Assembly: GCA_039803745.1 (NCBI GenBank)
Contig: JBDRZD010000018.1
Coordinates: forward strand, 1-29,425
DNA: 29,425 bases
DNA from: a candidate division WOR-3 bacterium
GTDB lineage: Bacteria; Hydrothermota; Hydrothermia; Hydrothermales; Hydrothermaceae
Reading direction: 5' to 3'
Shown: one piece after another, positions 24,001-29,425 of the stretch
Layout of the letters: each line of letters opens with the position of its first letter
Position numbering within the stretch: the first letter of the stretch is position 1
Made by a program: the position numbers

Positions 24001-27000
24001 TAAGTCAATCTTATTCTTACCATTCCACTTTCCTTTTTTCAAGAAATGCTTCTATACCTTTTTTAGGTTCACCTGTTGAAAATAAAAGTCCGAAAACTTC
24101 TTTTTCATATTCAAATCCCTTTTCAAGGGAAAGTCCATAATATATTGCTCTTTTCGAATAACAAACTGCATTTGGACCTGCCTCTTTAATCTTATTTGCT
24201 ATTTCTTTTGCCTTTTCAAGATGTTTCCCTTCTTCAGTTAAGAAATCAACAAGCCCAATCTCATAAGCCTTTTCAGCATCTATAAATTCACCTGTAAAAA
24301 TTAAATACATTGCTTTTCCTTTTCCGATTAAATTTGCAAGTCTCTGGGTTCCTCCAAATCCAGGCAAAACACCAATTTTTACCTCTGGTTGCCCTATTTT
24401 TGCATTCTTAGATGCAACCCTTATATCGCAAGCAAGCATTATTTCGCATCCACCACCAAGGGCATAACCGTGAACTGCTGCAATGACAGGAACCCTTAAA
24501 TTTTCCAATTTTTTTAAAATTCTATGTCCTGTTTCAGAAAATTCCCTTGCCTCTTGTGGTGTATAATCCTTCATTTCCTTTATATCTGCACCTGCACAGA
24601 AATTTTCTCCATCGCCATTTATTATTAAGCACCTTATATCTTTTTCTTCATTTTCTATATGATAAAGAGCACATTCAATTTCAAGAAGCATATCTTTATT
24701 TAAAGCATTTACTTTTGGTCTTGATAATGTTAAAATACCTATTCCATCTTCCTTGGAAAGTTTTATATATTTAAATTCTTTCATATCTCCTCCTTTTATA
24801 AGTCTTTAATTTTAAAAATAATTAGTCAGGTAATTCAATTGACTTATTTTTTTAATTCTTTGTATAATAATAAACTTGAAAATTTATGCCGGCGTAGCTC
24901 AGCTGGAAGAGCAGGTGATTTGTAATCACCAGGTCGGGGGTTCAAATCCCTCCGCCGGCTTTTTGGAGGGGTACCCAAGTGGACAACGGGGGCAGACTGT
25001 AAATCTGCTGGCGAACGCCTTCGGGGGTTCGAATCCCTCCCCCTCCATTGCGGGAGTAGCTCAATGGGAAGAGCACCGGCCTTCCAAGCCGGGGGTTGCG
25101 GGTTCGACTCCCGTCTCCCGCTTTAAAAAAGAGAATGCTTGAGAAAGTAGTATTTAAGATTTCAAGAAATTTAACAGCAGGTTCTGAAGAACTCCTTTTT
25201 AATTTTTTGAAAGAGGTAAAAAAATTAAATGTTAAAGTTGAAAAGGAAGATATATTAAAATCTCTTCAAAAAATAATTGAAGCAAAACCACAGATGGCTG
25301 TTTTTTATAAAGCAATGGAAATATTTGCAAAAGAAAATGATGATGTAAAAAATGTAATAGATAAACTGATTTTTAAAATTGAAAGCGCTATACCAAAAAT
25401 TTCTGAAAACCTTTTAAAGATTTTACCAAAGGAATTAAAGATATTAACTCATTCAAATTCATCAACTGTTATAAGGACTTTAAGGTATATAAAAGATAAA
25501 GTAAATATTAAAGAAATAATATGTACTGATTCAGAGCCCGGTGGGGAAGGAAAAAAAACTGAAAAGGATTTAAAAAAATATGATTTCAATGTAAAAAGAA
25601 TCCCTGATACACATATAATAAGGGCACTTGAAGAGGTAAATGCAATATTTATAGGGGCAGATGCAATATATGAGGATGGATTTTATAATAAGGTTGGAAC
25701 AAAAATAATTCTTACACTTTCACAAAATTTTGGTGTGAAATCATACCTATTATGTTCTACCTTAAAGATTTCGAACAATTTAAAGCATCTTGTTCTTGAT
25801 GATTATTATTTTGAAAGCATTCCATTAAATTTAGTTGATTCAGTAGTTACAGAAGAGGGGATAAATTGGAAATAAAAGTTATAGGGGGAGGGTTAGCAGG
25901 TTGTGAAGCAGCCTGGCAGATAGCAAAGAGAAAAGAAAAAGTTATTCTTTATGAGTCAAGACCTTTTAAAATGACCCCTGCCCATAAAACACCTTATCTT
26001 GCTGAACTTGTTTGCTCAAACTCTTTAAAATCAAAAGAGATTACCCATCCTCATGGTCTTTTAAAAAAGGAACTTGAGATGCTTGGCTCATTAATAATTG
26101 AGGCAGCAAATTATGCAAGAATTGATGGAGGGAAGGCACTTGTTGTTGATAGAGAAATTTTTTCAAAATATATAACAAAAAAAATTGAGGAAAATGAATA
26201 TATAGAAATAAGAAGAGAAGAGGTGAAGGAATTGCCTGATGGAATATGTATAATTGCAACAGGTCCTTTAACTCATGAAGAGTTTGCAAATAAATTAAAG
26301 GAATATATTGGTGAAGAATTTTTATATTTTTATGATGCAGTTTCACCTATTGTAAGTGCTGATTCATTAAATTTTGAAAAACTATTTAAAGGTGATAGAT
26401 TTGGTATTGATGATTCTTATTTAAATGCCCCAATGAATGAAGAGGAATATAAAAGATTTTATGAGGAACTTTTAAATGCAGAAATTCATAAAGAAAAGGA
26501 TTTTGAAAAAATTCCATATTTTGAAGGATGTTTGCCAATCGAGGTGATGGCAAAAAGAGGGTATGAGACAATGAGATGGGGACCATTAAAACCCTGCGGC
26601 TTTGAAAATTTAGAAAAAAAGCCATTTGCTGTAGTTCAATTAAGACCCGAAAATAAGGAAAGAACAATGTATTCTCTTGTGGGATTTCAAACACAGTTAA
26701 AAATAAAGGAGCAGGAAAGGATTTTTAGAATGATACCAGGTCTCGAAAATGCCGAATTTTTAAGATATGGAAAGGTTCATAAAAACATTTATATAAATTC
26801 GCCAAAACTTTTAAATCCTGATTTATCCTTAAAGAAGAATAAAAATATATTTTTTGCAGGACAAATAACAGGAACAGAAGGATATGTTGAGGCTGCGGCA
26901 GGGGGAATTTTTGCAGGTATAAATGCATTTTTAAGAAAAAAAGGAAAAGAAACATTAATATTTCCAAAAAATACTGCAATTGGTGCATTAATAAATTATA

Positions 27001-29425
27001 TTACTTCATCAAATAATCAAAATTTTTCTCCAATGAATATTAATTTAGGTCTTTTTGAAGATATTCCTAAATTTAAAGATAAAAGAGAAAAAAGGAAATT
27101 TATTGCTGAAAGGGCAATTTCAGAATTAAAAAAATTTATTGATGAAAATTCTTGGCTCTTTAAAGGGGAGGTAAAAGATGCTTAAAGAGAGTGAGAACTT
27201 GCAAAAAAAGAATGAATATATGAATCAAAATCCATATATAATTGTAAAGGCAAAAGAAAACGGCGTAAGGGTCATGGGACTTACAAGAGGGAAAGAAACA
27301 AGGGTATCCCATACAGAAATACTTTCAAATGGTGAAGTTTTAATTGCACAGATAACAGAGTTCACAGCAGCATATAAGATTGTTGGGAAAGCCCATATAT
27401 GGACACCTTATGGAGAAGTTGTAGCAGAGGGAGAATTGCCAAAAATAAAGGAGGCAAAGAAAGAAGTAGAAATTTAAAAAAAGAGAAAGAGTAAAAGTAA
27501 GGAAATAAAAGAAATAAAAGAGCCAAATAAAAAAGGAATTTTAGAACCAAAATAATTCCATAATATTCCAAAAATAAAAGAAGAAAGAAATAAACTTATT
27601 CCCTGAGCAAAATGATATACTCCATATGCACTTCCCCTTAATTCTTCTCTTGTTAAATCACCAATTAGTGCTCTCTCATTTCCTTCTGATAATGCAAAAT
27701 AAAGACCATAAAATAAAAATAAGAAGATAAAGAAGGGTAAAGTCTTTGCAAAGGTAAATAAAAGGTATGTTATTGAATAAATTAGCCAGCCTGCCATTAT
27801 GAGTTTTTTTCTTCCAATTTTATCAGATAAAATACCTGAGGGAATTGAAAAGATTGATTTAACAAGATGAAAAAGGCTCCAGAGCAAAGGCAAGAACAAA
27901 ATTTTTATTCCCTCTTCTTTTGCCTTCAAAATTAAGAAAGCGTCAGAGGAATTTCCAAGATTGAATAAAAAAAATATAAAGATTAAAAAATAAAATTTCT
28001 TTGGAAATTTAAAACTTAAAGAAAAAAATTCTTTTTTTTCATCTATTCTTTCTTTTACAAAATAAATGAGTATAAAGATTGCTATTATTCCCGGGAAAAT
28101 TGATATCAAAAATAATTTTCTCAAATCAAGAAAATTTAAAAGGAAAAAGGCGATAACAGGTCCTGTTAATGCTCCAAGGTGGTCCATTGCTCTTTGAAAA
28201 CCAAAAGCCTTACCCCTTTCATTACTTTCAACAGATAAAGAAATCAATGCATCCCTTGGAGAAGTTCTTATTCCTTTTCCAAATCTATCAATGAATTTTA
28301 AAAATAGAACCTGTATCCATGAATTTGTTATTCCAATGAATGGTCTTGAAAATGAGGCAAGAAAATATCCTGAAAAAATAAGAGATTTTTTCTTTTTAAT
28401 TTTATCAGATATTATACCTGAAAATAGTTTAAGGAATGAATTTGTTGCTTCAGCAACACCTTCAATAAAGCCGAGTGCTACTGTTCCTGCCTTTAATACA
28501 GTTGTTATAAAAACAGGAAGAAGTGGGTTTATCATTTCTGATGCTATATCATTAAAAAATGAGACAAATCCAAGAGCCTTTACATTTCTTGGTAAATTAA
28601 GGAATTTCATCTAAAAAATATCTATTATTTTCAAATTTTATATATCCTGTTTTAAGTTCATTGTCATGGGGAAAGAAAACCTGAATCCTATTTTCAACTA
28701 TATATTTATATATTTCTTTTCTTTTTTCAAGTGTTTCAAGTGGAAAATTATCATAAGCCATAATATATGGAAGATGAATGTGCTTTGAAGTTGGAACCAA
28801 GTCTCCAAAAAATAAAAATTTATCATCAATTAAAAAAATTATATGACCCCTTGTATGTCCACCAGTTTTAAAAATTTTTATGTTTTCAAGAATTTCACCA
28901 TCTTCTTTTATTTCTATTACTTTTTTATTTTCAATTAAAGGTAAAAAATCCTCTTTTAAATAACTTGCCCTTGTTCTTTCATTTGGATTTAATGCATCTT
29001 CTATTTCCTCTTTTCTTATAAAATAAGTTGCATTTTTAAACAAAGGAACTATTTTACCATTTTCTATTTTTGTTGCTCCTCCTGCATGATCAAAATGAAG
29101 ATGGGTAAAACTAACATAATTTATCTCATTTAAATTAAAAAGACTAAAATCTTCAATCCCTCCTTCAAATTCAAAAACCTCCTTTCTTTTATTATCCCAT
29201 TTATTTCCGCATCCCGGCTCTATTAAAAGTTTAAAATTTTTAGAAATAACTATTAAAGAGTTTTGTGAAAGTAAAATTCTGTTTTTTTCATCTGCAGGAT
29301 AAAAATTTTCCCATATTGTCTTTGGAACTATTCCAAACATTGCTCCACCATCAAGTTTAAAAGAGCCAATTTTTACATAATGAACTTCAAAATTTTTTGA
29401 AAGGAAAGTTTTTATATTTTTCATT

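Follow-up and report, generated by a model that had tools for sequence, protein, structure and literature searches.

What does a TRAP (trp RNA-binding attenuation protein) do in a hot-spring bacterium of the order Hydrothermales, encoded directly behind trmFO in a genome without a trp operon? The symmetric TRAP ring is a textbook example of RNA binding gated by a ligand and is commonly used as a scaffold in protein engineering. The window analysed here, a stretch of 29,425 nt of one contig, carries such a gene, which the earlier note had read as a TRAP acquired from Firmicutes and re-targeted to a new RNA, perhaps tRNA or mRNAs of tryptophan catabolism.

Identity, operon and distribution of the TRAP gene

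The gene and its surroundings comprise the following features.

24839..24868, + strand: promoter-like site TTGACT-18-TATAAT, 11/12 consensus matches, 20 nt before tRNA-Thr
24888..25122, + strand: three tRNA genes (Thr-TGT, Tyr-GTA, Gly-TCC), immediately 5' of the protein genes
25135..25875, + strand: eIF2B-like (PF01008) protein, 246 aa when started at the first ATG that follows tRNA-Gly, with a 10-nt overlap with the trmFO start
25866..27185, + strand: trmFO, folate/FAD-dependent tRNA U54 methyltransferase, 439 aa (NF003739, TIGR00137)
27165..27172, + strand: Shine-Dalgarno GGGGAGGT, within the trmFO 3' end, 5 nt before the TRAP ATG
27178-27477, + strand: TRAP-fold protein, 99 aa (PF02081 match, PDB matches, AF2 model)
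27474..28610, - strand: MFS transporter gene, convergent, its stop codon overlapping the TRAP stop codon

The 99-aa product was matched by Pfam TrpBP (PF02081) over residues 17-83 (E 1.3e-28, 99.1 bits, cut-off 21.3), and all 15 matches in a PDB sequence search were TRAP/MtrB. The AF2 monomer model (core pLDDT 88-94) showed seven strands in the TRAP beta-sandwich subunit fold and was superposed by Foldseek on 1qaw, 1c9s and 3zte with target-normalised TM of 0.95-0.96 and rmsd of 0.7-0.9 A. All three approaches agree with its designation as a clear TRAP; the 59% identity to Geobacillus MtrB claimed alongside was not recovered, as the Geobacillus chains gave 51-53% over 69-70 columns and the A. 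halodurans chain 57%, within a range of 48-57% for TRAP PDB chains overall (Foldseek alignments). Against the NCBIfam MtrB equivalog NF009724 the protein scored 98.7 bits, under the curated cut-off of 117. Public records label the genes of this clade 'trp RNA-binding attenuation protein MtrB'. Residues 18-85 form the core, equivalent to residues 7-74 of B. subtilis TRAP, and are flanked by N-terminal (1-15) and C-terminal (92-99) extensions that are clade-specific, conserved in sequence, of low confidence in the AF2 model and, in both cases, furnished with residues invariant across the clade. The gene is under purifying selection (dN/dS 0.12-0.16, three pairwise comparisons).

The promoter-like site, a consensus match in a region whose promoter count was not above that of shuffled sequence, is the likely start of the transcription unit. 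In relatives, a spurious ORF over tRNA genes recurs upstream of the trmFO-TRAP operon. trmFO and TRAP overlap by 8 nt, with the TRAP ATG at 27178 and the trmFO stop codon at 27183-27185, and the Shine-Dalgarno layout inside the trmFO end is repeated at two further loci (L036 and L041); at four loci of the order's second family (L037-L040), trmFO and TRAP are separated by 68-71 nt and TRAP has its own Shine-Dalgarno. The translational coupling proposed earlier is thus borne out by the overlap in this genome but is confined to one family, and the linkage itself, with TrmFO immediately upstream on the same strand at 10/10 loci from 9 genomes, stands without the claimed spacing of at most ~40 nt. 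The order eIF2B-like gene, trmFO, TRAP was preserved in 7/7 genomes of 4 genera despite differing flanks, and the MFS transporter gene, which closes the operon here, is not kept in the second family. The conserved unit is the tRNA genes, the eIF2B-like gene, trmFO and TRAP; being conserved within one order, this arrangement may simply have been inherited as an operon, with no functional link between the genes.

TrmFO has an ordinary sequence, shares about 60% identity with its counterparts in other phyla, and passes both equivalog cut-offs (NF003739, 617 bits against 262; TIGR00137, 590.9 bits against 428.65). The eIF2B-like protein matched Pfam IF-2B (E 2.4e-29), with 1vb5 as its best PDB match (E 1.6e-12), and fell under every NCBIfam cut-off, the best being TIGR00524 at 66.8 bits against 185.85. 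Assignment as MtnA or ribose-1,5-bisphosphate isomerase is not supported by these scores, which reach only the Pfam IF-2B threshold and no curated NCBIfam cut-off. Its orthologue lies upstream of trmFO in 7/7 genomes of the order; homologues outside the order are at most 35% identical, and none of their 18 loci adjoins trmFO.

PF02081 was detected in 9 of the 11 Hydrothermales genomes, reproducing the earlier count, and in none of 240 further genomes sampled from the phylum. Both absences within the order are assembly gaps: in one genome (G004) a contig end cuts trmFO, and in the other (G008) the contig stops 113 nt past metG, at the place where its congeners have the start of the operon, and thiC, from the other operon flank, was likewise not found. 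The clade TRAPs are monophyletic in the tree (99/96), on a long stem (0.93 changes per column). A pattern scan that took one genome from each species confirmed 593 canonical TRAP relatives, and the best 80 of these 593 were all from Bacillota. A single acquisition by the ancestor of the order is supported by monophyly and the 0/240 count elsewhere in the phylum; for the proposed Firmicutes source, Bacillota are the most likely donor.

Tryptophan and RNA contacts of the clade TRAPs

Residue positions below follow B. subtilis TRAP numbering, and the clade set consists of 19 sequences that are 57-100% identical. Tryptophan is held by hydrogen bonds from Thr30, Thr49, Thr52 and Ser53, the last of which is dispensable, and from the backbone at positions 25, 27, 29 and 47 (PMC1474065). 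Thr25, Gly27, Thr30, Gln47, Thr49 and Thr52 are present in 19/19 clade sequences, Ser53 is replaced by Ala in 14/19, and the 8 Trp contacts include none of the 11 core positions at which the clade has an invariant residue of its own. Judged by sequence, the tryptophan contacts are intact, and tryptophan binding by the clade protein is predicted from their conservation. Positions 51 and 55, which may line the pocket, deviate from the usual residues.

The RNA side of the ring is different. PMC1474065 names Glu36, Lys37, Lys56 and Arg58 as the principal RNA-binding residues, with Ala at any of the four lowering affinity by a factor of 26 to over 400 and R58A in a T30V background leaving no detectable RNA binding, and has the adenine contacted by the Lys37 main chain. 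In PMC4854314, G1 is bonded by Asp39 and has the Lys37 chain stacked on it, Phe32 stacks on G3, Glu42 pairs with Arg58, and Glu36 bonds G3 and also, independently of RNA, His34 and Lys56. In the alignment, F32V, K37I, D39S and R58V were found in 19/19 clade sequences (V43, I48, S50 and V69 in the protein studied here, where E47 and K67 correspond to Glu36 and Lys56), so that in every clade member small or hydrophobic residues stand where Bacillus TRAP has the side chains that grip (G/U)AG. All 19 lack two of the four principal residues, Lys37 and Arg58, and keep the other two, Glu36 and Lys56, along with His34 and Glu42. Among 62 non-clade representatives (gap-free over 20-60), K/R was found at 37 in 58, D at 39 in 57 and R/K at 58 in 47, and the clade residue at 32, 37, 39 or 58 occurred in 0/53 of a stricter set (gap-free over 7-69). 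The 7 RNA-interface positions include 4 of these 11 clade-specific, invariant positions of the core (hypergeometric p 0.0096). Arg at position 20 is new and invariant across the clade. A 2006 paper (PMC1474065) described the residues that bind RNA and tryptophan as fully conserved in every TRAP sequence known at the time, a description from which the clade departs.

The earlier note had left these residues open; examined here, they favour the re-targeting that it proposed, with four RNA-contact positions swapped and the tryptophan contacts intact. With the pocket kept and the RNA-gripping residues gone, the clade TRAP probably senses tryptophan for another purpose. That purpose could still involve RNA. 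The ring may have stayed a Trp-activated RNA binder whose altered rim reads a different RNA, through sites that are short or irregular, or by binding a small RNA present in many copies, for example tRNA, an account that we consider somewhat improbable. Every characterised member of the family (PDB TRAP entries) binds RNA; the operon has an RNA theme, with three tRNA genes and a tRNA methyltransferase, and a tRNA target would tie TRAP to both TrmFO and the upstream tRNA genes. Within the rim, Glu36, His34, Lys56 and Glu42 persist beside the new Arg20, and Ile at 37 could keep some aliphatic contact together with the main-chain contact to adenine, so that weaker or altered RNA binding may persist. 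Against this, Arg58 has become Val where, according to PMC1474065, Ala at a principal residue is already costly, and the Phe32 stack on G3 described in PMC4854314 is lost. Retention of Glu36, His34 and Lys56 fits a role in the RNA-independent hydrogen-bond network as well.

RNA targets and tryptophan genes

A new RNA target would have to be periodic, the ring sites being equivalent, and canonical target RNAs carry 9-11 (G/U)AG triplets spaced 2-3 nt. The exhaustive triplet scan covered the genome of the source organism (93.5% complete, 13 masked runs, 6,617 bases); no chain of at least five [GT]AG with 2-3 nt spacers was found on either strand, the longest having four, in keeping with the earlier count of no run of six or more. 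As a control, the scanner returned chains of 5, 7(+4), 9 and 4 triplets before trpE in four canonical genomes; the five-triplet pattern was present in 4/4 canonical-TRAP genomes and in 3/11 genomes of the order, all of the latter matches lying within long ORFs. When 400 triplet patterns were compared with order-3 Markov simulated genomes, the large excesses (GNG, GGN, NGG, CYG) sat on foreign GC-rich contigs, and the remaining hits were A/T-rich chains or small excesses, none traced to a leader. With two misses allowed, the 8 top located chains were all within long ORFs; outside coding sequence and foreign contigs, no periodic array of any triplet exceeded the simulations. The trpB2 leaders of 7 genomes shared no common array. 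These results speak against a new RNA target.

In the same genome, no match was found for TrpA, IGPS or the chorismate-binding protein TrpE, and none above cut-off for canonical TrpB. The absence of a trp operon reported earlier thus holds for trpE, trpC, trpA and canonical trpB, and is to be qualified by TrpB2 (C4:3943-5238, TIGR01415, 585 bits against 518.85), a tryptophanase-family lyase (C2:10264-11712, NF009709, 607 bits against 285) and an orphan TrpD (C8:21213-22241, 341 bits against 199). TrpA, used as the marker of a trp operon, is missing in 10 of the 11 genomes of the order, the only trp operon being that of a sister genus (G001). TRAP is constant in the order while TrpB2, the lyase and the trp operon each have a patchy distribution there, which likewise counts against mRNAs of tryptophan catabolism as its target. 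The trp/aro operon of G001 has no triplet array (longest [GT]AG chain, two) and carries two leader peptides (YYWYF and YYYWF), rich in Tyr, Trp and Phe codons and each followed by a terminator hairpin (GC, 11 or 13 pairs) and a T run, so that tryptophan biosynthesis, where present in the order, is controlled without TRAP-type sites. That TRAP is decoupled from trp biosynthesis in the order is supported by these observations.

The same data bear on the idea of a canonical TRAP whose (G/U)AG target is hidden in the 6.5% of the genome that is unassembled or in the 6.6 kb that is masked, a caveat already raised in the earlier note. The incompleteness of the assembly leaves room for it, but two principal RNA residues are replaced throughout the clade, a five-triplet array outside a long ORF was found in 0/11 genomes, and the sole trp operon uses leader peptides; we regard it as very unlikely.

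Possible roles and known systems

The reading tentatively preferred, with rather less than even confidence in it as a whole, is that of a once-acquired TRAP that kept its tryptophan sensor, lost (G/U)AG attenuation and binds a protein with its rim. The ancestor of the order would have gained the gene once, and it would have become fixed at the 3' end of the tRNA-eIF2B-like-trmFO unit. We infer that the clade TRAP still forms rings, which in known TRAPs have 11 or 12 subunits, and binds tryptophan, that it is no longer an attenuator of trp leaders or other (G/U)AG targets, and that the outer rim, remodelled and invariant across the clade, serves as a new surface for binding. The rim would report tryptophan status by binding protein, much as anti-TRAP docks on the same rim, and the co-transcribed eIF2B-like protein or TrmFO would be the first candidate partners. 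The choice of protein over a new RNA, which we tentatively favour, is the weakest step of this explanation. A bolder form, in which the lineage switched ligand class, the rebuilt hydrophobic rim and new tails binding protein and forming with the eIF2B-like protein and TrmFO a Trp-responsive module acting on tRNA modification or translation, is offered as a doubtful extension.

Binding of tryptophan or another small ligand without any macromolecular partner, as a buffer or store in a cell dependent on imported tryptophan or indole, or survival as a drifting remnant kept by operon position, is an unlikely alternative that shares the intact pocket contacts and would suit a cell with no de novo tryptophan synthesis but a salvage-type TrpB2 and a tryptophanase-family lyase; that the searches gave no target of any kind also agrees with it. 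The dN/dS values argue against a remnant, and the replaced rim positions, invariant at identities down to 57%, together with the conserved extensions, point to a selected surface that a pure buffer would not need.

The clade TRAP retains the sensor half and swaps the output half in organisms mostly unable to make tryptophan, a natural experiment on the rewiring of an allosteric ring that recombinant protein makes directly testable. It also calls for caution in annotation transfer, as the genes are labelled MtrB though neither the RNA contacts nor the targets that define it are present.

The closest known systems are the TRAP/MtrB proteins of B. subtilis and G. stearothermophilus (1wap, 1qaw, 1c9s), which share the fold, the Trp-contact residues and a small gene at an operon end. 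The clade differs from them in F32V, K37I, D39S and R58V, in its conserved extra tails, in a genome without (G/U)AG arrays, in the lack of a trp operon in 10/11 genomes, in a host outside Bacillota and in the link to trmFO, which lies within 3 kb of 0/80 canonical loci. The mtrA(folE)-mtrB operon of Bacillaceae likewise has TRAP as the last gene behind a folate-connected enzyme, but TrmFO consumes folate as methyl donor and does not make it; moreover, GTP cyclohydrolase I (folE) precedes mtrB in only 24 of the 73 canonical loci with an upstream same-strand ORF, PAP2, SLT, dnaE or other genes standing upstream in the rest. The second TRAP-folate linkage suggested earlier is weakened accordingly, and the parallel is probably coincidence. 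Attenuation by leader peptides is ribosome-mediated, as in the E. coli trp operon, which the G001 trp/aro operon resembles, and is distinct in mechanism from TRAP. An anti-TRAP homologue was not found above cut-off in the source genome (only match 24.2 bits, cut-off 32, in a 390-aa frame). In the TRAP-anti-TRAP complex (2zp8, 2zp9) the outer rim around Lys37, Lys56 and Arg58, residues that anti-TRAP recognises according to PMC1474065, docks a protein, and the preferred reading would place the clade rim in the same role.

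Operon structure and identity of the TRAP-fold product

All analyses were computational. The TRAP-fold gene lies at the 3' end of an operon in the window, which is the whole of contig C18; all parts of the operon are on one strand:

24839-27477, +, operon span
first element of 24839-27477, +, promoter-like site ahead of the tRNA genes
between the promoter-like site and the eIF2B-family gene, +, tRNA-Thr, tRNA-Tyr and tRNA-Gly
25135-25875, +, eIF2B-family gene (Pfam IF-2B, E 2.4e-29)
25866-27185, +, trmFO (NF003739, 617 bits)
27178-27477, +, TRAP-fold ORF of 99 codons (Pfam TrpBP, E 1.3e-28)

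Both neighbouring pairs of operon protein genes (eIF2B-like/trmFO and trmFO/TRAP) overlap, with the TRAP ATG, preceded by GGGGAGGT, placed 8 nt inside trmFO. At 27474-27477 the stop codon of TRAP (+) overlaps that of an MFS transporter gene converging on it from the other strand (-), and no terminator-like site was found between them. The transporter matched the Pfam reduced folate carrier family below threshold (21.8 bits, cut-off 27). At least half of the sampled words of the window were contained in 11 DNA runs labelled hot-springs metagenome, and none of the RNA sequencing runs searched contained the window.

The eIF2B-like protein is restricted to the order (43-100% identity within it, at most 35% outside), and none of 18 loci with homologues from outside the order adjoined trmFO. 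Its orthologues in loci L036-L041 are short (241-259 aa) and always directly ahead of trmFO. The protein reached none of the NCBIfam cut-offs for MtnA or ribose-1,5-bisphosphate isomerase; P. horikoshii 'eIF-2B' (1vb5) is its closest relative with a solved structure.

By sequence and predicted fold, the protein encoded at 27178-27477 is a TRAP. All 15 of its PDB sequence matches were TRAP/MtrB, and an AlphaFold2 model, built with 16 Hydrothermales TRAP-fold sequences as input, had a seven-stranded core (pLDDT 88-94). Superposed on 1qaw, 1c9s and 3zte, the model gave TM scores of 0.95-0.96 (target-normalised), an rmsd of 0.7-0.9 A and a sequence identity of 48-57%. The extra tails (residues 1-15 and 92-99) were modelled with low confidence, yet contain residues invariant in the clade. 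The gene is under purifying selection (dN/dS 0.12-0.16, three pairs). Against the NCBIfam MtrB equivalog model the protein scored 98.7 bits, under the cut-off of 117. By net charge of the core, the clade and canonical TRAPs could not be told apart. A complex of TrmFO with three copies of TRAP was predicted at a score of 0.00 (mark 0.32), a result that counts neither for nor against binding.

Linkage to trmFO, distribution and origin

The linkage of TRAP to TrmFO described in the earlier note was borne out: in all 10 loci TrmFO immediately precedes TRAP on the same strand. The translational coupling claimed there held for one family of the order, in which start and stop overlap, and not for the second (L037-L040), in which 68-71 nt separate the two genes and hold a short conserved element together with a Shine-Dalgarno for TRAP alone; predicted co-transcription is thus conserved and translational coupling is not. 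These spacers (L037 6471-6541; L038 6820-6890; L039 6294-6361, minus strand; L040 6274-6344, minus strand) open with the conserved element GAGCCGGGYTCYC, which may be a small hairpin or partial terminator, followed by an A/T-rich run. Among loci read with wider flanks, the gene order eIF2B-like, trmFO, TRAP was found in 7 of 7 genomes from four genera, with variable flanks. TRAP is thus always found together with an eIF2B-like gene and trmFO, and with tRNA genes as well.

PF02081 was detected in 9 of the 11 genomes of the order and in none of the 240 genomes sampled from the rest of the phylum. The two apparent absences are assembly artefacts: in G004 a contig end truncates trmFO, and in G008 the contig breaks off 113 nt beyond metG, at the very point where congeners begin the operon, and thiC of the other flank was not found either. 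Co-loss of TrmFO and TRAP in G008 was set aside as a reading in view of this contig break and the missing thiC.

Canonical relatives were collected by a pattern scan and a canonical-only alignment, one genome per species, giving 593 confirmed sequences. Canonical TRAPs are abundant in Bacillota, to which all of the best 80 of these 593 belong, and TrmFO was within 3 kb of TRAP in 0 of those 80. In the family tree the clade comes out as a single branch (support 99/96) whose long stem measures 0.93 changes per column, among canonical sequences that form an unresolved bush; the lineage that appears as its sister has a long branch, so this placement is not trustworthy. The simplest account is that the gene was acquired once and then changed fast.

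RNA-contact rim, tryptophan pocket and triplet arrays

Residue numbers were anchored on the G. stearothermophilus chain 6rvv, to which the protein aligns without gaps (window residue = Geobacillus + 13). We take the Geobacillus and B. subtilis numberings to differ by two, so that window residue = B. subtilis + 11; the mutated residue of 6rvv aligns with B. subtilis Lys37, in agreement with this conversion. B. subtilis numbers are used below.

PMC1474065 names Glu36, Lys37, Lys56 and Arg58 as the main RNA binders, with alanine substitutions lowering affinity 26- to over 400-fold. Tryptophan is contacted there by four side chains, Thr30, Thr49, Thr52 and the dispensable Ser53, and by the main chain of residues 25, 27, 29 and 47. 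In PMC4854314, G3 is stacked by Phe32, G1 is stacked by the aliphatic chain of Lys37 and bonded by Asp39, Arg58 pairs with Glu42, and Glu36 bonds G3 as well as, with or without RNA, His34 and Lys56.

The 19 clade sequences (57-100% identical) were compared with the representatives found when 1.84 billion cluster representatives were searched exhaustively with HMMER; this gave 79 matches at E <= 0.001, the clade's own cluster alone scoring below 1e-30. All 19 carry Val32, Ile37, Ser39 and Val58; all 19 also keep His34, Glu36 and Lys56, together with Thr25, Gly27, Thr30, Gln47, Thr49 and Thr52. Among 62 non-clade sequences gap-free over positions 20-60, several of whose deviants are visibly frameshifted fragments, position 37 is K/R in 58, position 39 is Asp in 57 and position 58 is R/K in 47. 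None of 53 non-clade sequences gap-free over 7-69 has the clade residue at 32, 37, 39 or 58. Four of the 11 core positions that are both invariant and clade-specific lie among the 7 RNA-interface positions (p 0.0096), and none lies among the 8 tryptophan contacts. As read from the alignment, the RNA-gripping residues are gone and the predicted tryptophan pocket is intact. The pattern of change is selective: residues assigned to RNA contact only became small or hydrophobic and were then frozen, and the structural (Glu36-His34-Lys56) and tryptophan-binding residues stay.

The claim that the genome lacks a canonical array held up under rescanning: perfect [GT]AG chains with spacers of 2-3 nt reach at most 4 triplets, and those with two misses allowed at most 5. 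As a control, the scanner recovered chains of 5, 7 (+4), 9 and 4 triplets ahead of trpE in four canonical-TRAP genomes. A fixed five-triplet pattern was matched in 4 of 4 canonical-TRAP genomes and in 3 of 11 of the order, where each of the three matches is internal to a long ORF and two fall in a single conserved ATPase motif. The genome is a 1.67 Mb draft (29.7% GC, 100 contigs, 93.5% complete) in which 13 masked runs, all outside C18, add up to 6,617 bases; that a canonical (G/U)AG target lies hidden is highly improbable.

An exhaustive scan, confined to this genome, compared 400 triplet patterns with order-3 Markov genomes. Large excesses of GNG, GGN, NGG and CYG were confined to three contigs of 58-68% GC; other excesses were A/T-rich chains or small, and none traced to a leader. 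When two misses were allowed, the 8 top chains located all fell within long ORFs. GNG x12 and GGN/NGG x9 were rejected as arrays because they lie on contigs C87 and C69, whose 63-68% GC in a 30% GC genome marks these chains as foreign. RAA x15, AAR x13 and x12, GGR x8, TCW x10, YTC x9, AWA x16 and NAG x7 were likewise rejected, the inspected chains lying inside long ORFs. The GC-rich contigs C69 (6811 b, 68%), C87 (3453 b, 63%) and C98 (2756 b, 58%) are almost certainly mis-binned foreign DNA. C87 has a purine-rich GNG-type tandem repeat beside a masked stretch, and on C69 positions 812-862 and 6158-6208 carry the same 51 bases, perhaps the terminal redundancy of a small circular element.

Tryptophan metabolism, candidate ligands and known systems

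The earlier note had found no trp operon in this genome. TrpA, TrpC, TrpE and canonical TrpB are indeed missing, but three Trp-related genes exist:

C4:3943-5238, stand-alone TrpB2
C2:10264-11712, tryptophanase-family beta-eliminating lyase
C8:21213-22241, orphan TrpD

It is therefore plausible that the organism handles free tryptophan and indole, and by family annotation the three may form a salvage loop. Across the 11 genomes TrpB2 occurs in 7, the lyase in 6 and TrpA in 1; since TRAP is constant and these are patchy, none is a universal TRAP target. No array was common to the trpB2 leaders of 7 genomes, and the genes upstream differ. In genus g4, TrpB2 and the lyase are mutually exclusive in four uncontaminated genomes. 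A small ORF of about 58 codons with a hydrophobic product immediately precedes trpB2 in the three genomes of the window's own genus (L013, L018 and, on C4, L017 at about 3762-3940) and is missing from other genera.

Only G001, of the sister genus, has a complete operon (L034, G001:C11; trpEGDCFBA-aroH-aroF-tyrA-aroA-aroE-aroC), and it also carries the same variant TRAP. Its leader (about 14765-15120, minus strand) has a strong promoter-like site and two tandem leader peptides of 24 and 25 aa, one with YYWYF and the other with YYYWF, each followed by a terminator hairpin (11 or 13 pairs) and a T run; its longest [GT]AG chain is 2. It looks like a double ribosome-mediated (leader-peptide) attenuator responding to aromatic amino acids.

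The clade protein would still assemble as a ring and, judging from the conserved contacts, bind tryptophan, and is probably no longer a (G/U)AG attenuator. Its rebuilt, invariant rim would be a new binding surface, for which we tentatively favour a protein as candidate ligand, because the rim replacements are hydrophobic, because a symmetric ring binding RNA needs a periodic site and none was found, and because anti-TRAP, a protein that docks on the same rim, shows that such docking can occur. A changed RNA target is a serious if somewhat doubtful rival: Glu36, Lys56 and Glu42 are retained, a new invariant Arg stands at position 20, and Ile37 could preserve part of the Lys37 contacts, set against the missing periodic site. 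A partner-less tryptophan buffer, or some other role, we consider unlikely: it would fit the intact pocket, but a pure buffer would have no need of a rim that is invariant in 19 of 19 sequences.

The variant is apparently new, in that we found nothing in print naming both TrmFO and MtrB, or on TRAP outside Bacillota or in WOR-3, with most subscription journals and supplements outside the search. The parallel with mtrA(folE)-mtrB, proposed earlier as making this a second TRAP-folate linkage, proved weak, folE preceding TRAP in only 24 of the 73 canonical loci where a same-strand ORF lies upstream. Compared with TRAP itself, the sensor half would work alike, but the protein lacks two features that define how the family functions, the RNA residues and the RNA targets, and we therefore class it as a TRAP variant rather than an MtrB equivalog.
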